From an uncultured Sphingomonadales bacterium (GTDB lineage Bacteria; Pseudomonadota; Alphaproteobacteria; Sphingomonadales; Sphingomonadaceae): a stretch of DNA of 64,000 nt. Shown one piece after another: positions 337-31,277 of this stretch. Below the pieces are notes generated by a model. The model was not told the DNA's origin and ran no database searches. It was given only the letters and a program-made list of their open reading frames with translations. Numbering within the stretch: position 1 is the first letter of the stretch; the number at the start of each line of letters is the position of its first letter. Position numbers and translations under genes: made by a program. The stretch spans positions 31,101 through 95,100 of the forward strand of contig CALCBC010000066.1 of NCBI GenBank assembly GCA_937898525.1, in the 5' to 3' direction.

Positions 337-2444
337 TCGAAGCGCTGGGATCGTTCACCGTGCAGCTCAGCTACCTGCTGTGTGCCGCTTTCGCGCTGGC
401 TCTCTCGGGCTGGTCGCTGGCGAGGCGGCGCGAACGCGGCCCTGCGGTCTCTGCCGAGGCCGGAGCGCTTGCGCTGACGGCCGGCTGGGCGTTCGCCTTC
501 GCGACGCTCGGCGATTCGGCATCGGTGACCTCGGCGCTGCTGAGCCTGACGCACCTCGCCTGGCTGTGGACGCTTTACCGTCTGTTTGCGCACGACGACC
601 GCGACAAGAGCCTGGCCCCGATCCGCCCGGTCGTGTTCGCGCTCGGGTTCGTCGAGCTCATGCAGCTCGTATTGCTGGCGGTCGTGCAGCAGTATGCGGG
701 TTCGCCGGAGGCGCAGCAGGCGATTGCCGGGTTCGCCGTGATCTTCCGCCTGCTGTTCTGTATCGGCGCGCTGGTTCTGGTGCACAACCTCTATGCCGGC
801 GCCGGGGCGGATGCACGCGAGGCGCTGCGCTGGCCGGCGGCGGCGCTCGCCACGATCTGGCTCTACGACCTGAACCTGTCGACCGTCGCCTACCTCGGCC
901 AACAGCTTCCGCTCGACCTCGTCACGCTGCGCGGCGCCGCGATCTTCTTCGCCGTCGGGCTGCTGGCGATCGGCCTGCTGCGCCACGACGGCAACCTGCG
1001 ATTCCGCCCCTCGCGCTCGTTCGCGTTCCGCTCGGCCTCGCTGCTGATCATCGGCGCCTACCTCGCGATGATGGTCCTGCTCGCGCAGGGCCTCGCCTAT
1101 GCGGAGGGGAAGGTCGACTGGCTGGTCCAGGCGAGTGTCGTTGCGCTCGCGGCAGCCGTCGCGCTGACCGTGTGGCATTCGCGGTGGCTGCGCGGCTGGG
1201 TAAGGGTCACCCTGTCCAAGCACCTGTTCCAGCATCGCTACGACTACCGCGCCGAATGGCTGCGATTCACCGAGACGATGGGGCGCGCCGGCGCATCGGC
1301 GGCGCCGCTGCGCGAACGGATCGTCCAGGCGGCGGCCGACATCACCGACAGTCCAGGAGGGCTGCTGCTGACCCCGCGCGAGGAAGGCGGGCTCGGTCTC
1401 GGCGCGCGCTGGCAATGGCCCGGCGTCGAGGTTCCAGCCGAAGCCCTGGGCGCCCAGGGGCAGCGGTTCTTCGAGGATAGCCAGTTCATTGTCGATCTCG
1501 ACGATCTGCGTTCGGGACGGGTCGAAGGCATACCCGCGGCAGCCTGTCCGGACTGGGTGCGCGATGAGCCGTCGGCCCGGGCGATGGTGCCGCTGTTGCA
1601 CTACGAGCGCCTGGTGGGCGTGATCGTGCTGTCACGCCCACCGGTCGCCCGCCGCCTCGACTGGGAGGATTTCGACCTGTTGCGCGTGGTCAGCCGCCAG
1701 CTGGCGAGCTACCTCGCCGAGCAGGCGAGCCAGGACGCGCTCGGCGAGGCGCTCCGCTTCGACGAGTTCAACCGGCGCATCGCGTTCGTGATGCACGACA
1801 TCAAGAACCTCGCCAGCCAGCTCGCTCTGCTCTCGCGCAATGCCGAGAAGCATGCGGACAATCCGGAATTTCGCGCGGATATGCTGCTGACGCTGCGTAA
1901 CAGCGCGGAGAAGCTCCAGGCGCTGCTCGCGCGGCTCGGGCGCTACGGTTCGCCAGCCGGCGAAGCCCCGCAGCCCGTCGCCGTCGGTGACCTGCTCGCC
2001 AACATCGCCAGGCGCTACGCCCCGCAGCACGAGGTGATCGCCATTTCGCGCGATCCGTGCCGCGCGCTGGCCTATCGCGAGTCGCTGGAACAGGCCCTGG
2101 TCCACCTCGTGCAGAACGCAATCGAGGCGAGCCCGAAAGGTATGCCGGTATTCCTCGACCTGCGCGCCGAGGACGCGCAGGCCGTGATCGAGATCGTCGA
2201 CTCCGGCTCCGGGATGAGCCCGGAGTTCATTCGCACCCGGCTGTTCAAGCCGTTCCATTCGTCCAAGCCCGGCGGCTTCGGCATCGGCGCTTTCGAGGCA
2301 CGTGAACTCATCCGCGCGATGGGCGGACGGCTCGAAGTCGAATCGCGCGAGGGGCTCGGAACCCGGTTTCGCGTGATGCTGCCGCTCGCCGAAGCCGCAG
2401 ACATGATCCGTTCAATCCAGTCTCACAGGACCGAGGTGGCGTGA
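333..2444 (+). CDS. prsK: PEP-CTERM system histidine kinase PrsK
   Basis: N-terminal multi-TM region, GAF-like middle region, H-box FVMHDIKN, N-box HLVQNAIEAS, G boxes DSGSGM and GFGIG. Lies between the sugar transferase and a sigma54 response regulator. Confidence 0.9.
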   Translation: MIEALGSFTVQLSYLLCAAFALALSGWSLARRRERGPAVSAEAGALALTAGWAFAFATLGDSASVTSALLSLTHLAWLWTLYRLFAHDDRDKSLAPIRPVVFALGFVELMQLVLLAVVQQYAGSPEAQQAIAGFAVIFRLLFCIGALVLVHNLYAGAGADAREALRWPAAALATIWLYDLNLSTVAYLGQQLPLDLVTLRGAAIFFAVGLLAIGLLRHDGNLRFRPSRSFAFRSASLLIIGAYLAMMVLLAQGLAYAEGKVDWLVQASVVALAAAVALTVWHSRWLRGWVRVTLSKHLFQHRYDYRAEWLRFTETMGRAGASAAPLRERIVQAAADITDSPGGLLLTPREEGGLGLGARWQWPGVEVPAEALGAQGQRFFEDSQFIVDLDDLRSGRVEGIPAAACPDWVRDEPSARAMVPLLHYERLVGVIVLSRPPVARRLDWEDFDLLRVVSRQLASYLAEQASQDALGEALRFDEFNRRIAFVMHDIKNLASQLALLSRNAEKHADNPEFRADMLLTLRNSAEKLQALLARLGRYGSPAGEAPQPVAVGDLLANIARRYAPQHEVIAISRDPCRALAYRESLEQALVHLVQNAIEASPKGMPVFLDLRAEDAQAVIEIVDSGSGMSPEFIRTRLFKPFHSSKPGGFGIGAFEARELIRAMGGRLEVESREGLGTRFRVMLPLAEAADMIRSIQSHRTEVA

Positions 2445-3808
2445 TGGCCGACCCCAGACCCAAGCTGCTCATCGTCGAGGACGACGAGGGCCTCCAGGCC
2501 CAGCTCAAGTGGGCCTACGACGACTTCGAGGTGATCATCGCCGGCGACCGGGCCAGCGCGATCGCGGCGCTTCGCGCCGAAGAGCCGCCGGTCGTCACGC
2601 TTGACCTCGGCCTCCCGCCGGACCCTGACGGGACCAGCGAAGGCTTCGCCGTGCTCGACGAGATCATCGCGCTCAAGCCCGATACGAAAGTCATCGTCGC
2701 CTCTGGCCATGGCGCTCGCGAAAGCGCGCTGAAGGCGATCGAACGCGGCGCCTACGACTTCTACCAGAAGCCTGTCGACATCGAGCAGCTCGGCCTGATC
2801 GTTCGCCGGGCGCTCAACTTGCATCGCATTGAGGCCGAGAATCGGGCGCTGGCCGAGCGGGCGGGGGAGGGCAACCGCGTGCTCGGCGGGCTGATCACCG
2901 CGGCTCCCGAGATGGTTCGCGTCGCGCGCACGATCGAGCGCGTGGCCAACACCAATGTTTCGGTCATGCTGCTCGGGGCGAGTGGGACTGGCAAGGAGCT
3001 GCTCGCGCGCGGTCTGCATGTGGCAAGCGGCCGCAGCAGCGGCAGCTTCGTGGCGATCAACTGCGCGGCGATCCCCGAGAATTTGCTCGAGAGCGAACTG
3101 TTCGGGCACGAGAGGGGCGCCTTCACCGGCGCGGTCAAGACGACCGAGGGCAAGATCGAACAGGCCAGCGGCGGCACGCTGTTCCTCGACGAGGTCGGCG
3201 ACATCCCGCTGCCTCTGCAGGTCAAGCTGCTGCGGTTCCTGCAGGAACGGCAGATCGAGCGCATTGGCGGGCGCAAGGCGATCGACGTCGACACGCGGAT
3301 CGTCTGCGCGACGCACCAGGACCTCGAGGCGATGATCCGCGACGGCCGCTTCCGTGAGGACCTCTTCTATCGCCTGGCCGAAGTCGTCGTCAGGATCCCC
3401 TCGCTCGCCGAGCGGCCCGGCGACGCGACGCTGCTCGCCAAGGCGTTCCTCAAGCGTTTCGCACGCGAGGTGGGCTCGCAGGTGACTGGATTTGCCTCCG
3501 ACGCGCTTGCGGCGATCGACGCGTGGAACTGGCCGGGCAATGTGCGCGAGCTCGAGAACCGCGTGAAGCGCGCGGCGATCATGGCCGATGGCAAGCTCGT
3601 CACCGCCGCCGATCTCGATTTGCAGCTCGGCAGCGAGGATGATCCCTCGGTGCTCAACCTGAAGAGCGCGCGCGAGCAGGCCGACCGCAAGGTCATCCGC
3701 CATGCGCTGGCGCGGACCGAAGGCAACATCTCGAACACGGCCAAGATGCTCGGGATCAGCCGGCCGACCCTGTACGATCTGCTCAAGCAGTATGGTCTTC
3801 AGGCCTGA
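2441..3808 (+). CDS. prsR: PEP-CTERM-box sigma54-dependent response regulator PrsR
   Basis: Receiver domain (IVEDD, LDLGLP), AAA+ domain GASGTGKE with GAFTGA loop, C-terminal Fis-type HTH ([17 protein letters not shown]). Overlaps prsK stop. Confidence 0.92.
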
Positions 3809-5582
3809 CCTGCGTCTGCTGTTGGTCGCGGCGGCGACCCTCGCCCTGGGGCCACCGCTGGCGGCGGCTCCGGGGACCGACTATCTGGCCGACGCCTCCG
3901 CGGCCCTCGTCCGCGGCGACGCGATCGCCGCCGACGTTGCAGTGGACCGGGCGCTCGACGCCGGTTTCCCCCGCGAGCAGGTCGCGGCCTATGCCGGCGA
4001 GACAGAACTGCTGTTGGGAAACATCACGGCCGCGAGGGAATGGCTCGCGCCGGGCCGGTTCGCGTCGGAGAGTGCGCAGCGCGGATTTCATGCGCTGGCG
4101 CGCCTGGAGTGGCAGGAGGGGAATCTCGCGGCCGCCGCGCGGGCGTTCGATCTCGCGCTCGCCCGGCCGCCCGCGAGCGCGCGGCTTTGGGTCGATATCG
4201 GCCGTTTTCGCTATGCTGGCGGCCAGCACTGGCTCGCGGTCGAGGCTGCAGAGCGAGCGGTGGCGATCGATCCGAAGGATCCGCGCGCGCTCGAATTCCG
4301 CGGCCAGCTGCTGCGGGACGCGCAGGGTGTCCGCGCCGCGGCGGAATGGTTCGAGCGCGCGCTCGAGCAGGCGCCCGACGATCTCGGGCTGCTCGGCGAA
4401 TACGCCGCGTCGCTCGCCGAGAGCGGCCGCAATCGCGAAATGCTGAAGGTCGCGCGGCGCATGGTCACGATCGATCCGCGCCACCCGCGCGCCTATTTCC
4501 TGCAGGCGGTGCTCGCCGCGCGCGCGGGGGAGGACAACCTCGCCAGGCGGCTCCTCTGGCGCACCGAGGGGGCCTACGATGCGGTGCCCGCCGGGCAGCT
4601 GCTGAAGGGAATCCTCGAGCTGCGCACCGGCAACGCGTCGCTCGCCGTGCGGCAGTTCGACGCGCTCGCTCGCAGCCAGCCCGACAACCCGCGCGCGACG
4701 CTGCTGCTCGGCCGCGCGCTGCTGGCCGCCGGAGAGGCGGGCGAGGTGGTCGAGCGGTTCGAAGGGTTGGCCGCGCGGTCCGACGCTTCGCCGTACCTGC
4801 TGACTCTGGTCGGGCGGGCTCTCGAGCAGCTCGGGCGGCGGGAGGATGCTGCCGCCTATCTCGATCGGGCAGCCGCCAGGGGACCCGTTTCCCTCGCCGT
4901 CTTGCCGGTCGGGCCGGCTGGAGACCTGGCGCTCTGGCGCATGAGGAGCGAATCCGAAAGCGCTGGCAGCGCAGTGCCGCGGTTGCGCCGGCTGATGGCC
5001 GGGGGGCGGGCCGACGAGGCGCTGGCGTTCTCCACCCGTCTCGGGAGTCGCTATCCGGGCTCGACCGACGTGGCCCGGCTGCGCGGTGACGTCGCTCTGC
5101 TCGCGGGCGATCCGGCGAAGGCGCTGGAATTCTATTCGCAGGCGGCGTCTGTCCGCATCGACTACGCCCTGATCGAGCGCAGCGTCGTCGCGCTGAGGCA
5201 GCTCGGCAATTCCACGGCGGCGGCGCAGTTGCTCGCCGCCGAACTCGTTCGCAACCCACGGGACGGTCGTGCCGCGATCCTCCTCGGGCGGTTGCAGGCG
5301 GAGGCCGGGAATCGGGAGGCCGCCGCGGCGCTGCTCGACTATGCCGTGCGGCTTGGCGCAAGCGATCCGCTGCTGCTCGCCGACCTCGCCACTGCCGAAC
5401 TGGCGGAGAAGGCCGATTCGGCCCGAGAGGCCGCGCTTCGCGCCCACGGCCTGCAGCGCGGCAACGGCAGGGTCGCTGCAGTCCGCGCCCGGACGCTCGA
5501 GGCGAGCGAGCCTCAAGCGGCCGAGATCCTGCTGGCCAAGTCGCGGGCGCTCGCGGCCCCGCCGCCGTTGGCCGCGCGCTAG
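3792..5582 (+). CDS. Exported TPR-repeat protein, PrsT-like
   Basis: Start moved to ATG 3792 ([26 protein letters not shown], signal-peptide-like). Multiple TPR-like helical repeats. Sits at the usual PrsT position after prsR. Confidence 0.75.
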   Translation: MVFRPDLRLLLVAAATLALGPPLAAAPGTDYLADASAALVRGDAIAADVAVDRALDAGFPREQVAAYAGETELLLGNITAAREWLAPGRFASESAQRGFHALARLEWQEGNLAAAARAFDLALARPPASARLWVDIGRFRYAGGQHWLAVEAAERAVAIDPKDPRALEFRGQLLRDAQGVRAAAEWFERALEQAPDDLGLLGEYAASLAESGRNREMLKVARRMVTIDPRHPRAYFLQAVLAARAGEDNLARRLLWRTEGAYDAVPAGQLLKGILELRTGNASLAVRQFDALARSQPDNPRATLLLGRALLAAGEAGEVVERFEGLAARSDASPYLLTLVGRALEQLGRREDAAAYLDRAAARGPVSLAVLPVGPAGDLALWRMRSESESAGSAVPRLRRLMAGGRADEALAFSTRLGSRYPGSTDVARLRGDVALLAGDPAKALEFYSQAASVRIDYALIERSVVALRQLGNSTAAAQLLAAELVRNPRDGRAAILLGRLQAEAGNREAAAALLDYAVRLGASDPLLLADLATAELAEKADSAREAALRAHGLQRGNGRVAAVRARTLEASEPQAAEILLAKSRALAAPPPLAAR

Positions 5583-16226: not shown

Positions 16227-17870
16227 ATGAGCGAACGCGAATCGATGCCGGTCGACGTCGTGATCGTCGGCGCGGGCCCGGCCGGGCTCGCCGCGGCGGT
16301 CCGTCTCAAGCAGCTCGATCCCGCGCTGGAGGTCGTCGTGCTCGAGAAGGGCTCGGAGGTCGGCGCGCATATCCTCTCGGGCGCGGTGATCGACCCGCGC
16401 GCGCTCGACGAGCTGCTGCCCGACTGGCGCGAGGAATGCCCGCTCGCCGAAGTCCCGGTGACGGAGAACCACCACTGGGTGCTGACCCGCTCGGGCAAGT
16501 GGGAGATGCCCGAACTGCTGCTGCCGCCGCTGATGTCCAATCGCGGCTGCTTCACCGGATCGCTCGGCAACCTGTGCCGCTGGCTTGCGGAGCGCGCCGA
16601 AGCGCTCGGCGTGCAGGTGTTTCCGGGCTTCCCGGCGAGCGAGGTGCTGTTCGACGGCGAGGGTGCGGTGATCGGCGTCGCCACGCAGGACATGGGCGTC
16701 GCCGCCGACGGCTCGCACAAGCCCGACTACCAGCCCGGCATCGAGCTCCATGCCAGGTACGCGCTGTTCGCGGAGGGCGCGCGCGGGCACCTGACCAAAC
16801 GGCTCAAGGCCCGTTTCGGGCTCGATGCCGACTGCCAGCCCCAGGTCTACGGCCTGGGAATCAAGGAACTGTGGGACGTTGACCCCGCCAGACACGAGCC
16901 TGGAAAGGTGATCCACACCCAGGGCTGGCCGCTCGCCGAGCGCGACGCGTGGGGCGGAGGGTTCCTCTACCACCAGGCGAACGGCCAGGTCGCGCTCGGC
17001 TTCGTGACCGGGCTCGACTACGCCAACCCGTGGATCAGTCCGTTCGAGGAATTCCAGCGCTGGAAGCGCCATCCGGCGATTCGCGAGGTGCTCGAGGGTG
17101 GCCGCCGCGTCGCCTACGGAGCGCGGGCGATCAACGAGGGCGGCTGGCAAAGCGTGCCCCGGCTGGCCTTTCCGGGCGGCGCGCTGATCGGCTGCGCCGC
17201 GGGGTTCGTCAACGTACCTCGGATCAAGGGCAGCCACACCGCGATGAAGAGCGGCATGCTTGCCGCGGAGGCCGTCGCCGCCGCGATCGCCGCCGGACGC
17301 GCGAACGACGAGCTGGCCGAATACGATGCTGCCGTTCGGACGAGCTGGATCGCCGACGAACTGAAGCTGGTCCGCAATGCGCAGCCACTGGTCGCCCGGT
17401 TCGGCGGTGCGCTCGGCACGTTGCTGGCCGGCATCGACATGTGGCTGCGCACGCTCAAGGTGCGGCTGCCGGTCACGCTCGGCCATCATACCGACGCCGA
17501 ATCGACGCGGCGGGCGGACCTCTACGAGCCGATCGTGTACCCGAAGCCTGACGGGCTGGTCAGCTTCGACCGGCTTTCGTCGGTCTTCCTCTCGGGCACC
17601 AATCACGAAGAGGACCAGCCGTGCCACCTGCAGCTCAAGGACCCGGCGGTCCCGCTGAAGGTCAACTGGCCGCTCTACGCCGGGCCTGAGCGCCTCTATT
17701 GCCCGGCTGCGGTCTACGAGTGGGTCGGTGTCGAGGAGGGGAATCCGCGCCTGGTGATCAACGCGCAGAACTGCGTCCACTGCAAGACCTGCGACATCAA
17801 GGATCCGCCGCAGAACATCGAATGGGTGACGCCCGAGGGGGGCGGCGGACCGAACTATCCCAACATGTGA
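16227..17870 (+). CDS. Electron transfer flavoprotein-ubiquinone oxidoreductase
   Basis: GAGPAG FAD motif, EVGAHILSGA, PRIKGSHTAMKSG, C-terminal CPAAVYE and NCVHCKTCDIKD Fe-S motif. Confidence 0.96.
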   Translation: MSERESMPVDVVIVGAGPAGLAAAVRLKQLDPALEVVVLEKGSEVGAHILSGAVIDPRALDELLPDWREECPLAEVPVTENHHWVLTRSGKWEMPELLLPPLMSNRGCFTGSLGNLCRWLAERAEALGVQVFPGFPASEVLFDGEGAVIGVATQDMGVAADGSHKPDYQPGIELHARYALFAEGARGHLTKRLKARFGLDADCQPQVYGLGIKELWDVDPARHEPGKVIHTQGWPLAERDAWGGGFLYHQANGQVALGFVTGLDYANPWISPFEEFQRWKRHPAIREVLEGGRRVAYGARAINEGGWQSVPRLAFPGGALIGCAAGFVNVPRIKGSHTAMKSGMLAAEAVAAAIAAGRANDELAEYDAAVRTSWIADELKLVRNAQPLVARFGGALGTLLAGIDMWLRTLKVRLPVTLGHHTDAESTRRADLYEPIVYPKPDGLVSFDRLSSVFLSGTNHEEDQPCHLQLKDPAVPLKVNWPLYAGPERLYCPAAVYEWVGVEEGNPRLVINAQNCVHCKTCDIKDPPQNIEWVTPEGGGGPNYPNM

Positions 17871-17886: not shown

Positions 17887-18183
17887 CTAGGACGTGCCGA
17901 CGACGATCGAGACCGCGCCGTCCGGAGCGATCTCGACGCGGTAATTGGTCAGCCCGGCCTGCTGCGCGGCCTTGATCGCCCGCTCCGCGTCGCGTTGCCG
18001 CCAGTCCGACCTGCCGCGAGGCGGGTCCTCAACGGGCCGCAAGGCCTCCGCGTCGGGAATGATCGCAAAGCCCGAAAGCGGCGCTGCGGGCGCCTCGACC
18101 GTCCGGTCGCACAGGAACTGCGCACGAATCTGGATCGGGGATTTGCCCCCATCACGTCGTGAAGCACGGGTCGCGATGACCAA
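17887..18183 (-). CDS. Small hypothetical protein, copy 1 (paralog of 20036-20365)
   Basis: Aligns along its length with 20036-20365 (ATR, AQFL, SGFAI, RAI.AA, LT.YRVEIAPDG..SIVVG). AGGGGG RBS 5 nt before a TTG start. Confidence 0.7.
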   Translation of the reverse strand: MVIATRASRRDGGKSPIQIRAQFLCDRTVEAPAAPLSGFAIIPDAEALRPVEDPPRGRSDWRQRDAERAIKAAQQAGLTNYRVEIAPDGAVSIVVGTS

Positions 18184-18300
18184 CCCATCCCCCTAGTTGG
18201 CCATAATCCGCTGGTTTAGCCGGCGCGATCAGGCTGCCTCTCCTGAAGCCGAGTATGAGCGCGTGGCGGCGGACCGCAAGCCGGAATCGTGCCTGTCCGC

Positions 18301-18349
18301 GACAATTTTCACGTCGGCGAGACAAATTGCTACACTTTGACCATTGCGG
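18301..18349 (+). promoter_or_regulatory. Conserved promoter/operator block upstream of sulfotransferase 1
   Basis: GACAATTT-N12-GACAAATT followed by GCTACACT (-10-like). The 31-mer 18319-18349 matches 20501-20531 at 28/31 positions. Confidence 0.65.
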
Positions 18350-18408
18350 TCGCCCGCAGCATCCCCTCTCAGGGATGCCGGAACGGTAGGAAAATCACGG
18401 TTTTGCGA

Positions 18409-19908
18409 GTGTCCAGATCCTCAGGGACGGACGTCACGCCCGGCCCGGATCTGGCCGCGGCAGTGGCCCTGACAGACCGGCTCCAGCGTGCGCTGGGGCA
18501 GGGTGATCGTGCCAGCATTGTCGCCTGCCTGAGCGAGCTCGTCGAAATCCGCGCCCCCATGGGCCCGCAGTGGCAGCAGCTTGCCTGCATCGCCGCCGAT
18601 CACGGCGAGCTCGGACTGTCGCGCGATGCGATGGCCCTCTACGTCGAGGCGACCGGCAACGACCCGCGGGCCCGTTACCAGCAGGCGGCACTTCTCGCCC
18701 AGGGCGGGGCTCTCAGGCAGGCCTATGCCATTCTCCGGGATCTGCCCGAAGACGTCCCCGATCCCGCAGCCAACGCCTACAGTCGCGGTGCAGCGGCGCT
18801 GTTCCTCGGCGAGACGGACGAGGCGCGTGAACGGCTCGAGCGCGCAGCGCACCTGCGTCCCGATCTCGGGCACGCCTGGTTGCCGCTGTCGACACTGGTG
18901 GATTTCGCCCGCGAGCCGCGGATGATGGAGTGGATCGTCGAGGTCGGCCGGGCGATGGAAGCCGCGCCACCGGCCACGCGGGCGGTCTACTTCTACGCCC
19001 TGGGGAAGGCCTACGCCGACCTTGGCGAAACTGCGCAGGCCTTCGCGGCCTTCGCTCGAGGCGCCGAGATCAAGCGCGCCGAAGGCGGGTACGATGCCGC
19101 GCGCGACGCTGCCGATGCGGCCGAGGCCGTTCGCGGCTACGATGCTCGGGCCATAGAGTCCATTGCGCGTGCACAGACCGAGCCGACCGGCCGGACAATC
19201 TTCGTCACCGGCCTGCCGCGATCGGGCACGACGCTGGTCGAGCAGATCCTTACGAGTCATAGCGAGGTCAGCGACGGGGGCGAGATCAATCGGTTGCGCA
19301 TGCTCGCGCGCGAAATCGGCGGCACGTCGCGGCCGGCGCTGGCCAGATATCTCGAATCTCGCGGTCCCGACGAGGCGGCGCAGGTCTGGAACCACTGGCT
19401 CGCCGAGCGCTTCCCGGGAGGCGGCCGCATCGTCGACAAATCTACCGACACCAGCCGCTATCTCGGCCTCGCCGCTGCGCTGTTGCCCGAAGCGCCGATC
19501 GTCTGGCTCAAGCGCGATCCGCTCGACTGCGCGTGGTCCTGCTTCAGGACGCATTTCCTCGCCGGCGTATCGTGGAGTTACGACCTGGCCGACATCGCCC
19601 ATCACTTCAGGCTCGAGGACGAGCTGCTGGCCCGCTGGCAGGACATTCTCGGCGATCGCGTGCTGGTCGTACCTTACGAGGGCCTCGTCGCCGATTCGGC
19701 CGGCTGGATCCGCCGCATCCTCGCGCATTGCCAGCTGAGCGAAGAGCCGGAAGCGTTCTCGCCGCACGAGAACCGCCGCGCGGTGACCACGTCGAGCGTC
19801 ATGCAGGTCCGCCGGCCGATCAACCGCGCCGCGGTCGGCGCCGCCGAGCCGTATCGCGCGTTTCTCCAGCCCTTCGTCGACGCTTACGCCGACCTGGTGC
19901 AAGCATGA
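18409..19908 (+). CDS. TPR-domain sulfotransferase, copy 1
   Basis: N-terminal TPR-like helices, 5'-PAPS-binding IFVTGLPRSGTTLVEQIL, 3'-binding WLKRDPLDCAWSCF, SSVMQVRRPIN. GTG start inferred from alignment with copy 2. Confidence 0.88.
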   Translation: MSRSSGTDVTPGPDLAAAVALTDRLQRALGQGDRASIVACLSELVEIRAPMGPQWQQLACIAADHGELGLSRDAMALYVEATGNDPRARYQQAALLAQGGALRQAYAILRDLPEDVPDPAANAYSRGAAALFLGETDEARERLERAAHLRPDLGHAWLPLSTLVDFAREPRMMEWIVEVGRAMEAAPPATRAVYFYALGKAYADLGETAQAFAAFARGAEIKRAEGGYDAARDAADAAEAVRGYDARAIESIARAQTEPTGRTIFVTGLPRSGTTLVEQILTSHSEVSDGGEINRLRMLAREIGGTSRPALARYLESRGPDEAAQVWNHWLAERFPGGGRIVDKSTDTSRYLGLAAALLPEAPIVWLKRDPLDCAWSCFRTHFLAGVSWSYDLADIAHHFRLEDELLARWQDILGDRVLVVPYEGLVADSAGWIRRILAHCQLSEEPEAFSPHENRRAVTTSSVMQVRRPINRAAVGAAEPYRAFLQPFVDAYADLVQA

Positions 19909-20035
19909 CATCGTTGGTGAGGAACAAGTCCGGCGATCGGTACTGACCCGCGCGGATCGCGGCAAACGGCGTTCCCCGACGAGTTTCAGGTCCATCCCCC
20001 CGACGGAGGAGGGCGTCTTCCGGCAAGGACGCGGG

Positions 20036-20365
20036 CTACAGATCCGTGTCGAAAGGCTCGCCTTCGCCACCGACCGGATAGCCGACCACGATCGAAATCG
20101 TCCCGTCGGGGGCGATCTCCACTCGGTAGGACGTGAGGCTGGCCTCCTTCGCTGCGCCGATGGCACGTGCGAGATCGTCGTCGCACCAGGTCCCCTTTCG
20201 CCCGCTGGCTGCGCCCGGCACCGGTATCACCGGCTCGGGAGCGATGGCGAAGCCCGACATCGGCCCTTCCGGCGTGAACGCTGGCTGGTCACGCAGGAAC
20301 TGCGCTTGAATGTGAATTGGGGTCGCGCCTTCCTTTCGCGCGGAGTCCCGGGTCGCCATGGGCAC
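20036..20365 (-). CDS. Small hypothetical protein, copy 2
   Basis: Paralog of 17887-18183 (DDDLARAIGAAKEASLTSYRVEIAPDGTISIVVG). AGGGGG RBS 6 nt before a GTG start. Confidence 0.7.
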   Translation of the reverse strand: MPMATRDSARKEGATPIHIQAQFLRDQPAFTPEGPMSGFAIAPEPVIPVPGAASGRKGTWCDDDLARAIGAAKEASLTSYRVEIAPDGTISIVVGYPVGGEGEPFDTDL

Positions 20366-20481
20366 CCAAATCCCCCTGTCGAACCCACCCCCGATGATTA
20401 TTCGGGTGGTGGGGCATCCTCTCCAGCGGACGATTATGCTTGCTTTGCTAACGACTTCAAGCAGGATTCTTCGCAGCCTGC

Positions 20482-20531
20482 GACAATTTCCGTTTCAGAT
20501 GAGACAATTTGCTACACTTTGTCCGTTGCGG
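20482..20531 (+). promoter_or_regulatory. Conserved promoter/operator block upstream of sulfotransferase 2
   Basis: Perfect direct repeat GACAATTT-N13-GACAATTT followed by GCTACACTTTG. Ends about 59 bp before the inferred start, as in copy 1. Confidence 0.65.
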
Positions 20532-20589
20532 CACCGCGCCGGATCGCCTCTCTGCGTCCGAACATTCAAGACGAAATAATGGTTTAGCT

Positions 20590-22098
20590 TTGTCCAAGCC
20601 TTTCGGGACCGACGGCACGCCCGGCACTGGACTGTCCGCGTCGGTTGCCCTTGTCGACCGGCTCCAGCGTGCGCTGGGGCAGGGCGATCGCGCGCAGACC
20701 GTGCTTGCCATCCGCCAGCTCGTCGAGTGCCGGGCACCGCTTGGAAACCAGTGGGAGCAGATTGCCTACATTGCCGCCGACAACGGCGAAGTGACGCTGG
20801 CTCGAGCCGCCATCGCGCTGTTTGAAAGCAGCGCCCGCGATCCCACAGTTGCAGCGCATCGCACGGCCGGACTGCTCGCTCACATCGGCGCATGGAATGA
20901 GTGCTACGCGGTCATGGACGCGCTTCCCGCTGCCGGGTCCGATCCGGTGTCGCTCGCGCACAGCAAGGGCACGGCCGCCTTGCATAAAGGCGATGTCGAG
21001 GGGGCGCGCAGCTTGCTCGAGCGCGCAGTGCGCATGCGGCCGACGTCGGCCCCGACCTGGCAAACGCTGGCGAAGCTGGTCGATTTCGCCTCCGAGCCCG
21101 AGCTCGTGAGGCTGTTGCTGGGCGCCAGGCGGGCGGTCGAGTCCGCGGATCCCGCCACCCGCGGAGTCTACGGCTTCGCCCTGGGCAAGGCCTACGAGGA
21201 TCTGGGGGAGCGCGCACGGGCCTTCGAAGCGTATGCCGAAGCCGGCAGGCATATCCGCTCGACACGACCGTATGATCGCGAGCGGGACCTCAAGATCGCC
21301 CACGAAGCGGTCGAAGGGTACACTCCCGAGAGCCTTGGCGCGATCGCGGGCCGGCAGACGGAAGACACGAGCGGCACCATCTTCGTGACCGGCCTGCCGA
21401 GGTCGGGCACGTCCCTGGTGCAGCAGATCCTGACGTCTCACAGCGCCGTCGGCGACGGAGCGGAGATCAATCGCCTCGGGCTGTTCGTGAAGGACATTCG
21501 CGGCCTTTCGTGGGCGGCGCTCGAGGCGTACCTCGGGAAGTGCGGTATCGTCGAAGCTGCGCGGCTCTGGCGACACTGGATGGAGGAGCGGTTCCCCGGA
21601 AAGGGACGCGTGGTCGACAAGACCGTCGGCAACGGCCGCGTGCTCGGGATTGCCGCCGCAATCCTGCCCGAGGCGCCCCTCATCTGGCTGCGCCGGGATC
21701 CGCTCGACTGCGCGTGGTCGTGCTTCAAGACGTTCTTCCTCGGCAACTTCCCGTGGAGCTACGACCTCGAGGACCTCGCCTTCCACTTCCGGATCGAGGA
21801 TGCGTTGCTCGCGCGCTGGCAGGCGATTCTCGGCGATCGGCTGCTGACAGTCCCGTACGAGGGTCTGGTGTCCGATCCCGAGACGTGGATTCGTCGGATC
21901 CTCGCGCACTGCCATCTCGATGAAGAGCCGCAGGTCTTCGCGCCGCACGAGAATCGCCGGGTGGTAGCGACGTCGAGCGTCATGCAGGTGCGCCGGCCGA
22001 TCAACCGCGCGGCCATAGGGTCGGCGCAGCCCTACAAGCCGTGGCTGGAGCCTTTCCTGGCGGAATACGAACGCGAGACCTCGCCCATATTGTCGTAG
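20590..22098 (+). CDS. TPR-domain sulfotransferase, copy 2
   Basis: IFVTGLPRSGTSLVQQIL, WLRRDPLDCAWSCF, SSVMQVRRPIN. Aligns with copy 1 over its full length. TTG start inferred from the alignment. Confidence 0.88.
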   Translation: MSKPFGTDGTPGTGLSASVALVDRLQRALGQGDRAQTVLAIRQLVECRAPLGNQWEQIAYIAADNGEVTLARAAIALFESSARDPTVAAHRTAGLLAHIGAWNECYAVMDALPAAGSDPVSLAHSKGTAALHKGDVEGARSLLERAVRMRPTSAPTWQTLAKLVDFASEPELVRLLLGARRAVESADPATRGVYGFALGKAYEDLGERARAFEAYAEAGRHIRSTRPYDRERDLKIAHEAVEGYTPESLGAIAGRQTEDTSGTIFVTGLPRSGTSLVQQILTSHSAVGDGAEINRLGLFVKDIRGLSWAALEAYLGKCGIVEAARLWRHWMEERFPGKGRVVDKTVGNGRVLGIAAAILPEAPLIWLRRDPLDCAWSCFKTFFLGNFPWSYDLEDLAFHFRIEDALLARWQAILGDRLLTVPYEGLVSDPETWIRRILAHCHLDEEPQVFAPHENRRVVATSSVMQVRRPINRAAIGSAQPYKPWLEPFLAEYERETSPILS

Positions 22099-22132: not shown

Positions 22133-22942
22133 ATGCTCGCCGAGACCGCTTACGCCAAGATCAATCTCGCCCTGCATGTCAGGCGCCGTCGCCCTGACGG
22201 CTATCACGAACTCGAGACGCTGTTCGCTTTCGTCGACGCGGGCGACAGGCTGACGGCCCACAAAGCGGACCGTGACGAGCTGCGGGTAGTCGGCGAATTT
22301 GCCGATCAACTATCTGATCCGTTTGATAATCTCGTTATGGAAGCGCTCGCCGTCCTGCCGCGCCGCGACGGCCTTGCGATCACGCTGGACAAGGCGTTGC
22401 CCGTCGCGGCCGGCCTCGGTGGAGGCTCGGCCGACGCCGGCGCGGTGTTCCGTCTCGTGCAGGCCGCCCACGGCCTGCCCGACGAGTGGCGCGATCGCGC
22501 GGCCCGGCTGGGGGCGGATGTACCGGCCTGTGTTGAAAGCGTCGCCTGCATCGGGCGCGGCACGGGCACGGAGCTCGAACCGGCCGAGAACGACCTCGCA
22601 GGAGCCGGTGTGTTGCTGGTCAATCCGCGCGTGCCGCTGTCGACCGGGCCGGTCTTCGCGGCCTGGGACGGAGAGGACCGCGGTCCGCTTCCGTCGGGCC
22701 CTGCCTCGGTGATCGCTGCTGAAGGACGCAACGATCTCGAGCGCGCGGCGATCGCGCTCTGTCCCACCGTCGGCGAAGTGCTGGAGGCCCTGCGCGAAAC
22801 CGGGGCGAACTTCGTGAGGATGAGCGGCTCGGGTGCGACCTGCTTCGCCCTGTTCCGGCGTCATGACGTCATGCGCAAGGCCGCAGAAGAGCTGGCTTCT
22901 TCGCATCCGGGGTGGTGGCAGATGCAGGGCAACTTGAGATGA
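22133..22942 (+). CDS. ispE: 4-diphosphocytidyl-2-C-methyl-D-erythritol kinase
   Basis: AKINLALHV...DGYHELETLF, KALPVAAGLGGGSADA, RMSGSGATCF. Confidence 0.95.
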   Translation: MLAETAYAKINLALHVRRRRPDGYHELETLFAFVDAGDRLTAHKADRDELRVVGEFADQLSDPFDNLVMEALAVLPRRDGLAITLDKALPVAAGLGGGSADAGAVFRLVQAAHGLPDEWRDRAARLGADVPACVESVACIGRGTGTELEPAENDLAGAGVLLVNPRVPLSTGPVFAAWDGEDRGPLPSGPASVIAAEGRNDLERAAIALCPTVGEVLEALRETGANFVRMSGSGATCFALFRRHDVMRKAAEELASSHPGWWQMQGNLR

Positions 22943-30290: not shown

Positions 30291-31277
30291 CTAGCCAGCG
30301 GCGCGTCGTGAAACAAGCTTGCGCGCGAGCCCCTTGGCCAGCGCGAACCAGTTGCGCGGGTTGCCGGGACGGAAGCAGTCCAGCCGCCAGCGCGGCCGCA
30401 CCTGCTCCATCCAGTCGCGCTTGTAGGGGTCGTCTCCGGTGCCGAAATCGACCCATTCGACGCGGTCGCGGTCGATCACATGCTCGAACAGCGCGGCACT
30501 GAGCGTCGTACCTGCCGACAGCGGCCGTGCGCTCTCCAGATGGGCGAGCTTGTGAATGTAGGCGGTGCCGTCCTCGACCGTCCATACCTGTGCGGCAATG
30601 ACAGCGCCCTCGTGGCGCGCGAGGCCGAGCCGCAGCCGCCCGGCCGCCCCTTCGGCTTCGGCAAACCGGCGCAGCAATGCAGGATCGCCTTCGGCGGGCT
30701 TCCAGCTTTCGCTGTAAACGGCCTCGTAGGCTTCCCAGGCCCCGACCTCGAATGAGGTCAGGATTTCCACCTGGACCTTCTTCGCCTTGCGCTTGAGCGT
30801 CGTCCTCAGCGGCCCCGGGCGCGCGGCCAGGTACTCCGCGTAGCTGCGCCCGGCGACCGGCAGGACGTGGTTCGTGTCGCATGGCTCGCGCAGCACGATC
30901 CATCCAGCCTCGCGGAACGCGCGCTCGAGGCGCGTCGCGCAGCCGTTCTCGTCGGGCAGCTTGCTGAGCGTGACGCGCGAAGCCTGTGACCCAAGATCGC
31001 GGGCGAGGCGCGCGAGCAGCGCTTCGCGCGGAGCATTGCCGGTGGCGAGTTCGGTCCAGGTGAAGGCGTACCAGTTGCTCAGCGGTTCGAGGCCGCCGTC
31101 GCTGCGAACCAGGGGCAGGGCAAGCGCTTCCGGGCCCTCGCGCACCAGCGCGACCAGCGGGCGCATGCCCGACTGCTCGAGCAGGGCGAACCACTCGGGT
31201 CGCGCGAACGGGCCGCGCCCGGTGAAAGGCAAGCCTTGCAGAACGTTAACCGTCTCGTGATAGCTGACTTCCGCCAC
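30291..31277 (-). CDS. GNAT-family (CelD/BcsL-like) acyltransferase
   Basis: RTTLKRK, YSESWK, LRLGLA, AYIHKLAH, SAGTTL, DFGTGDDPYKRDWM. Confidence 0.82.
   Translation of the reverse strand: MAEVSYHETVNVLQGLPFTGRGPFARPEWFALLEQSGMRPLVALVREGPEALALPLVRSDGGLEPLSNWYAFTWTELATGNAPREALLARLARDLGSQASRVTLSKLPDENGCATRLERAFREAGWIVLREPCDTNHVLPVAGRSYAEYLAARPGPLRTTLKRKAKKVQVEILTSFEVGAWEAYEAVYSESWKPAEGDPALLRRFAEAEGAAGRLRLGLARHEGAVIAAQVWTVEDGTAYIHKLAHLESARPLSAGTTLSAALFEHVIDRDRVEWVDFGTGDDPYKRDWMEQVRPRWRLDCFRPGNPRNWFALAKGLARKLVSRRAAG

Follow-up and report, generated by a model that had tools for sequence, protein, structure and literature searches.

The stretch of DNA considered here (the window, 64,000 nucleotides at positions 31,101 to 95,100 of contig CALCBC010000066.1) comes from an uncultured Sphingomonadales bacterium and contains two copies of a two-gene module, located between the gene for electron transfer flavoprotein-ubiquinone oxidoreductase (ETF-QO) and ispE. 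In each copy, a gene for a small protein (SP1 or SP2) lies head-to-head with a gene for a protein related to sulfotransferases (ST1 or ST2); the coordinates are collected in Table 1. The two SP sequences are 54% identical over 97 residues (BLASTP, E 6e-29), a similarity far beyond chance by which they are genuine paralogs, and ST1 and ST2, both of about 500 residues, are 57% identical; at these levels of identity, the two genes were duplicated together. The initial annotation had described two paralogs with a common core, preceded at the same spacing by AGGGGG ribosome-binding sites and having non-ATG starts, and this description is confirmed, both reading frames being on the minus strand at the coordinates given and the sequence AGGGGGA lying 5 nt before the TTG of SP1 and the GTG of SP2. 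It had also reported no integrase in the window, in agreement with the absence of any match to the Phage_integrase model on the whole contig; the four matches in the genome are all on other contigs.

Table 1. Positions of the features discussed (window coordinates, except for the two phage genes, for which the record is named)
Feature	Position	Strand	Description
ETF-QO gene	16227-17870		Flanks the module pair on one side
SP1	17887-18183	-	98 aa; TTG start; PIQIRAQFL segment at the N terminus, then a disordered linker and a C-terminal core of helix and beta-hairpin (DWRQRDAERAIKAAQQAGLTNYRVEIAPDGAVSIVVG)
Control region 1	18184-18408		Common to SP1 and ST1
Hexamers of control region 1	GCGACA 18299-18304; GAGACA 18319-18324; GCTACA 18329-18334		Phased, toward ST1
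-35-like box, TTGCGG	18344-18349		Follows the hexamers of control region 1; putative promoter
ST1	18409-19908	+	Tetratricopeptide repeats (TPR) and Sulfotransfer_3 (TPST-like); motifs GLPRSGTTL and GGE; start GTG 18409 or TTG 18403
SP2	20036-20365	-	109 aa; GTG start (GVG-type); SP1 paralog with acidic C-terminal tail; alternative start ATG 20359, 2 codons later, where the public gene call begins
Control region 2	20366-20589		Architecture as in control region 1
Hexamers of control region 2	GCGACA 20480-20485; GAGACA 20501-20506; GCTACA 20511-20516		Toward ST2
ST2	20590-22098	+	TPR and Sulfotransfer_3; ST1 paralog; TTG start
ispE	22133-22942		Flanks the module pair on the other side
psul1_p02 (AZV00310.1)	MK291443.1 1149-1346		Paracoccus phage vB_PsuS_Psul1; overlaps integrase gene; annotated hypothetical
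Pan3_35 (UXO93957.1)	ON968454.1 24937-25110		Phage Pan3, gene 35; overlaps integrase gene; annotated hypothetical

The Small Protein Family and Its Sulfotransferase Neighbor

Searches with SP1 and SP2 against the Pfam, NCBIfam, and PHROG models gave no match at E ≤ 1 other than a sub-threshold match to CsgC (18 bits, as against a cut-off of 25), which was discarded as a chance similarity on the beta-hairpin, and a literature search on the family found no paper. Homologs were collected as 54 clusters by a word-indexed search, every one of them annotated as hypothetical, and an exhaustive profile search enlarged the family to 848 cluster representatives at E ≤ 1e-3 (140 at E ≤ 1e-10). Three giant proteins with 12-18 hairpin matches each (P0153, P0161, and P0187) were set aside as repeat look-alikes. 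SP1 and SP2 are members of a real, conserved protein family that has no existing annotation. When 38 full-length members are aligned, the C-terminal stretch of 35 residues, W..D..RAI.AA..AGL..YRVEIAPDGTISIVVG, shows almost no variation; Leu24, Trp60, Arg67, Arg81, Val82, Glu83, Ile84, Pro86, Asp87, Gly88, Ile92, and Val94 are invariant; and Tyr80 is at least 90% conserved. The N-terminal segment that had been recognized as conserved in the two window copies is kept as P-I-Q-I-R-A-Q-F-L-R throughout this alignment, but the linker of about 30 residues and the tail are not conserved. In an AlphaFold2 model of SP2 only the core is folded, with a helix at residues 62-74 and strands at 80-84 and 90-94 (predicted local distance difference test score, pLDDT, about 80), the remainder being disordered. 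SP-type proteins have a median pI of 6.1, and SP2 itself has a pI of 4.6; many members are acidic or neutral. Their distribution across the order is patchy, with matches in 19 of the 301 genomes sampled and full-length members in only 6 besides the source genome.

The sulfotransferase domain (Sulfotransfer_3, PF13469) is found above the cut-off in ST1 and ST2 (E 1e-33 and 1e-30, respectively), preceded in both by TPR repeats. The only solved structures matched by the ST sequence are those of protein-tyrosine sulfotransferases, the PAPS (3'-phosphoadenosine 5'-phosphosulfate)-binding GLPRSGTTL motif and the GGE motif being aligned. The catalytic domains align with animal tyrosylprotein sulfotransferases TPST1 and TPST2 (PDB entries 5wrj and 3ap1, and tick TPST, 8w5z) over about 190 residues that include the 5'-phosphosulfate-binding GxPRSGTTL and the following GE, but the similarity is low (E 1e-6) and the bacterial proteins differ in being cytoplasmic and in their fusion to an N-terminal TPR region. 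No signal peptide was noted when the N terminus of ST1 was read by eye. Bacterial relatives of the animal enzymes are widespread, and TPR-ST homologs are present in 221 of the 301 Sphingomonadales genomes; apart from RaxST, we know of no such bacterial relative with a described substrate, and literature searches turned up no relevant work on TPR-sulfotransferases, whether in sphingomonads or connected with RaxST.

The association of the two genes was examined in 14 non-redundant SP-type loci, comprising the two in the window, one each in genomes G044, G225, G257, and G300, two in G146, and six on metagenome contigs. In 12 of these, SP and the gene for a close homolog of ST (43-61% identical to ST1) lie head-to-head, and the two exceptions (L022 and L023, from one genus) represent a sirtuin locus from which the ST gene has been deleted. 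The surroundings of the loci vary, the neighbors being ETF-QO and ispE, sirtuin and dapB, pairs of LigAB-type dioxygenases, or cupin and RTX genes. SP is thus tightly linked to one subfamily of TPST-like sulfotransferases. In G300, the sirtuin locus has kept an orphan SP, and a site between two LigAB genes has kept an orphan ST; the two come from different modules, and this complementary retention suggests that both can work in trans. The linkage is not reciprocal, however, since close ST relatives (46-51% identity) occur in genomes that have no full-length SP, beside genes for PEP-CTERM or TonB-receptor-like proteins, so that the enzyme has no intrinsic need for SP. In four such loci (L075 in G295, L076 in G161, L078 in G066, and L080 in G116) the SP-less relative of ST1 is head-to-head with a gene for a PEP-CTERM protein of about 400 aa or in line with a TonB-receptor-like gene of about 930 aa.

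The proximity of a small protein with a conserved Tyr to a cytoplasmic Sulfotransfer_3/TPST-like enzyme recalls RaxX and RaxST of Xanthomonas oryzae, and the initial annotation had accordingly proposed that SP might be a substrate sulfated on the Tyr of the YRVEIAPDG sequence. The strict linkage of the genes, the high conservation of Tyr80, and the restriction of structural matches of ST to protein-tyrosine sulfotransferases, with GxPRSGTTL and GE aligned, are all in keeping with that proposal. The Tyr that the initial annotation described as invariant is not so: among 165 representatives with a recognizable core, it is Tyr in 149, Phe in 8 (about 5%), and another residue in 8. Six members of the family contain no Tyr at all, and the gene for one of these (P0035, found on two contigs) is head-to-head with that for an intact Sulfotransfer_3 protein of 496 aa. 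Other hydroxyl residues fare no better, Thr89 being replaced by Ala in SP1 and residue Ser91 being variable, so that together with the variation of the Tyr no hydroxyl residue is invariant. Known TPST sites are acidic and disordered, but the Tyr of SP opens a predicted beta-strand and is flanked by basic and hydrophobic residues (xxYRVEI). A replacement of Tyr by Phe would be tolerated for a buried aromatic residue but not for an acceptor site, and a role for SP like that of RaxX is quite unlikely. The 14 SP loci contain no signal peptide, double-glycine leader, peptidase-containing transporter, or type I secretion gene; SP thus differs from RaxX in having no leader or double-glycine site, and its genes from the Rax system in having no linked RaxA/B/C-type secretion or PAPS-synthesis genes. 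SP is also predicted to have a folded core rather than to be a short linear peptide, and RaxST has no long TPR domain, unlike ST1 and ST2. SP is probably not the Tyr-sulfated substrate of ST.

Relatives Encoded beside Phage Integrases

The weaker genomic matches of the family, detected by the A1 profile at E 1e-4 to 1e-12, extend over the core only; the proteins concerned, of about 60 aa, are here termed phage-type. Comparison of the SP core with these proteins by hhalign gave a probability of 98.7% and an E of 3.2e-16 over 49 columns. In 10 of 11 phage-type genomic loci, in sphingomonad prophages, an open reading frame of 350-390 aa begins 0-75 bp downstream, and all six of the downstream reading frames that were scanned encode Phage_integrase proteins. 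A tblastn search of cultured phages with one phage-type protein matched two records, in both of which the gene for the small protein overlaps the start of the integrase gene (psul1_p02 and Pan3_35, Table 1). The resemblance to small proteins beside the tyrosine integrases of alphaproteobacterial prophages, to which the initial annotation had pointed, therefore reflects true homology. The small protein of "Pseudanabaena phage Pan3" matches a sphingomonad prophage protein with 43% identity.

The phage-type proteins are all annotated as hypothetical and have no match in Pfam or PHROGs. They are basic, with a median pI of 9.8, which would fit nucleic acid binding, and have a C-terminal F/W-D-x-W motif that is absent from the SP type. 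In psul1_p02 and Pan3_35, the core F-K-Q-x-D-x-x-R-A-x-x-A-x-x-x-A-G-L ... E-I-x-P-D-G-x-I is homologous with that of SP, but these proteins, of about 60 aa, are basic, carry the F/W-D-x-W tail, have no N-terminal extension and a much more variable hairpin, and are linked to integrases, never to sulfotransferases. An AlphaFold2 model of a phage-type member, based on 91 aligned sequences, has a helix at residues 10-22, a hairpin at 27-32/38-42, and a C-terminal helix at 53-64 (mean pLDDT 78). A tree of the core sequences groups 37 of the 38 SP-type members in a single clade, with the 77 phage-type sequences outside it (support 0.86); this points to a single origin of the ST-linked branch; the SP type is a single clade restricted to the Sphingomonadales. 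The small reading frames adjacent to integrases in many alphaproteobacterial prophages are thus one unannotated family, part of the 848 representatives and absent from Pfam and PHROGs.

Genes for excisionases, or recombination directionality factors (RDFs), normally lie immediately upstream of the integrase gene, and the phage-type family is in this respect a candidate new class of excisionase. The remote homologs of SP occupy the canonical position of xis, but neither SP nor its relatives have a hidden Markov model match or a significant structural match to known factors such as lambda Xis, Tn916 Xis, TorI, and AlpA/HTH_17; the predicted fold, one helix and a beta-hairpin with an additional C-terminal helix in the phage type, is not a winged helix; and no integrase is present near SP1 or SP2. 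A Foldseek search of the PDB with the AlphaFold2 models of the SP core and the phage-type protein found nothing at E < 0.3 and no Xis, AlpA, or winged-helix entry, the best hits beyond that threshold being ACT-like or RRM-like half-units and the C-terminal domain of T4 MotA. The single hit in BFVD (G8DH72, 78 aa, E 9e-3), unnamed and unannotated, is probably a phage-type homolog. The only matches to sequence profiles in the PDB were look-alikes of the hairpin, such as those in NHL-repeat and S-layer proteins. A similarity of SP to known excisionase folds consequently finds no support in structure prediction or profile searches, nor does its assignment to any of the known excisionase families; the description "excisionase-like" refers to gene position only, and to that of the remote phage-type homologs only.

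Repeats in the Control Region

All 12 modules contain, about 90 bp upstream of the start of ST and directed toward it, hexamers of the form (G/A)n(G/T)ACA in 10-bp phase, for example GAGACAAATTGCTACACTT, and in both window copies a third hexamer is located 20 bp upstream. The repeats in the modules are followed by a TTGnnn box resembling a -35 element and by a weak -10 element. At two orphan SP loci a block of 63 nt that contains the repeats and a neighboring palindrome has been kept, with about 10% divergence as compared with 30-45% in the flanks; the low divergence suggests that the repeats at orphan SP loci are under purifying selection. The repeats also precede the orphan ST of G300 and are absent from more distant ST loci that have no SP. 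A sigma-EcfG promoter (GGAAC-N16-CGTT) upstream of ST1 was discounted, as its spacing is wrong and differs between the two copies, and boxes for PhoB and integration host factor (IHF) were ruled out as explanations of the repeats on spacing or consensus.

In the source genome the 16-mer is found at four places, as compared with none or one for a reversed control: the two modules, a site upstream of ihfB with one mismatch, and a site about 200 bp upstream of an operon that encodes an EF-hand protein, an OmpR/PhoB-type response regulator, and a histidine kinase. The sequence GCGACA-N4-GCGACA-N26-GCGACA precedes this EF-hand operon in many Sphingomonadaceae. The motif is present in 13 of 16 related genomes, the reversed control giving none. 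Of the loci that were retrieved, at least seven, some of them from genomes that have no SP, have it just upstream of an EF-hand homolog and pointing toward that gene. As judged from these sequences, the modules and a conserved two-component operon have an operator in common. In SP-less genomes another protein must read the repeats, so that the motif can be accounted for without SP; the view that the GnGACA repeats are solely a private operator of SP was therefore dropped. Phased direct repeats beside a -35 box are the classic site geometry for activators of the OmpR/PhoB family, and the simplest reading is that the regulator encoded in the EF-hand operon recognizes the repeats and has the SP/ST modules among its targets. 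The operon probably encodes an autoregulated two-component system, possibly sensing calcium or the envelope, with the modules in its regulon. SP itself could bind the repeats, it could affect the regulator at this site, or it could merely share the regulation of ST.

The copy of the operon in the source genome (G000, contig C130; L054, about 1112-4020, minus strand) encodes a secreted EF-hand protein, the OmpR/PhoB-type regulator, and a histidine kinase with a HAMP domain, and similar operons are found at L059, L061, L066-L068, and L073. The copy of the repeat with one mismatch (G000:C102:1107-1122, L055) lies between a GntR-family gene and ihfB, which encodes the beta subunit of IHF, about 135 bp upstream of the latter; it could represent a further member of the regulon or a chance match. 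The control regions of some lineages contain a second, palindromic element with the half-site CTAACG, which may be the operator for a dimeric factor. It occurs in two arrangements and positions, one in L022, L023, and L036 (CCGTTAGCTTTCTAACGG) and the other in L043, L081, and L083 (CTAACGATCGTTAG), and the window copies have only a remnant of it (ACGGTAGGAAAA, about 18384-18395).

One way in which SP could modulate the regulator is suggested by TorI, an Escherichia coli prophage excisionase that binds a response regulator of the OmpR family. By analogy, SP might attach itself, at the GnGACA repeats, to the response regulator encoded in the EF-hand operon and adjust what that regulator does at the promoters of the modules. 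The repeats are common to the modules and the EF-hand/OmpR-type operon and are kept beside orphan SP genes, and SP descends from an integrase-adjacent family in the RDF position, some chromosomal relatives of RDFs, such as P2 Cox and TorI, being known to double as transcription factors or as modulators of response regulators. The likeness is nevertheless one of analogy, as TorI is a winged-helix protein of the Xis type and SP is not, and binding of the regulator to the repeats is itself suggested by their geometry only; a mechanism of this kind seems quite unlikely.

A Possible Regulatory Role for SP

Taken together, the homology with integrase-adjacent proteins, the fixed divergent gene arrangement, and the repeats lead us to favor, tentatively and as something short of probable, the view that SP is a small regulatory protein of phage origin that has been domesticated and acts at the control region shared with ST. 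Under this scheme, the SP clade would have branched from the family of mostly basic proteins of about 60 aa that are encoded next to integrases in alphaproteobacterial phages and prophages, keeping the helix and beta-hairpin core, losing the F/W-D-x-W tail of the phage type, and gaining the N-terminal PIQIRAQFLR extension. It would then have become fixed head-to-head with one subfamily of genes for cytoplasmic TPR and TPST-like sulfotransferases, and the resulting two-gene module would later have been duplicated in tandem in the source genome. SP is envisaged to act at the control region of about 225 bp, in which the 10-bp-phased GnGACA repeats lie upstream of the weak -35 and -10 elements for ST, either as a DNA-binding protein in its own right or through an effect on the OmpR/PhoB-type regulator, the probable reader of the same repeats at the EF-hand operon, and would thereby set the expression of ST and of its own gene. 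What appears to be new is the recruitment of a family of small phage proteins to a chromosomal enzyme module.

Several observations weigh against this interpretation. DNA binding by any member of the family is hypothetical, the structural searches gave neither model a significant match to a known DNA-binding fold, and the SP-type proteins, as noted above, are not basic overall. Many sphingomonads in which SP is missing carry these repeats in front of the EF-hand/OmpR-type operon; the proposal of the initial annotation that SP regulates the divergent promoter stays plausible but is complicated by these operator-like sequences. Finally, the 16 contiguous, near-invariant residues of the hairpin, which are under stricter constraint than in the phage type, would fit a tight interface with the TPR enzyme equally well.

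Such an interface is central to a different possibility, that SP is a dedicated protein-level partner of the TPR-sulfotransferase, docked by the TPR region through, for example, the PIQIRAQFLR segment or the hairpin, and serving as an adaptor, a specificity or regulatory subunit, or a chaperone that is not necessarily sulfated. TPR repeats are protein- or peptide-binding modules and are here fused to the TPST-like catalytic domain, SP and ST are strictly linked and were duplicated together, and constraint on the hairpin (YRVEIAPDGTISIVVG) is much stricter than in relatives of the phage type. The retention of one SP and one ST in trans in G300 and the acidic or neutral character of many SP proteins are also easily accommodated. 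However, the close relatives of ST in genomes that have no full-length SP are difficult to reconcile with an essential partner, and divergent transcription is more typical of a regulator and its target than of enzyme subunits, so that a partnership of this kind, although it deserves consideration, is rather unlikely. Less likely still is a combined proposal in which the integrase-adjacent proteins of about 60 aa constitute a new and structurally distinct class of RDF in alphaproteobacterial phages and the domesticated branch, SP1 and SP2, is an obligate, TPR-docked partner of the TPST-like enzyme that recruits ST to a target or is itself modified. If that proposal were true, the modules would rank among the earliest intracellular protein-sulfation modules to be defined in bacteria, whereas if SP, as we tentatively prefer, is merely a local regulator, the gain in annotation would be modest. 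The module is a compact and genetically simple handle, in which an enzyme of one subfamily is consistently paired with a single small protein and a single recognizable operator, as questions of regulation and of partner or substrate require only two proteins and 225 bp of DNA.

Two features of the neighborhoods of SP/ST modules may be mentioned. At five loci (L038 in G146, L041, L045, L077 in G300, and L083) the module is between or beside two paralogous genes for fused LigB-LigA proteins, extradiol dioxygenases of the gallate/protocatechuate type, which hints either at a recombination hot spot or at some connection with the breakdown of aromatic compounds. In one metagenomic lineage (L043, L044, and L081), genes for RTX-type (HemolysinCabind) calcium-binding proteins are convergent to SP and, together with the EF-hand operon, form a loose calcium theme.

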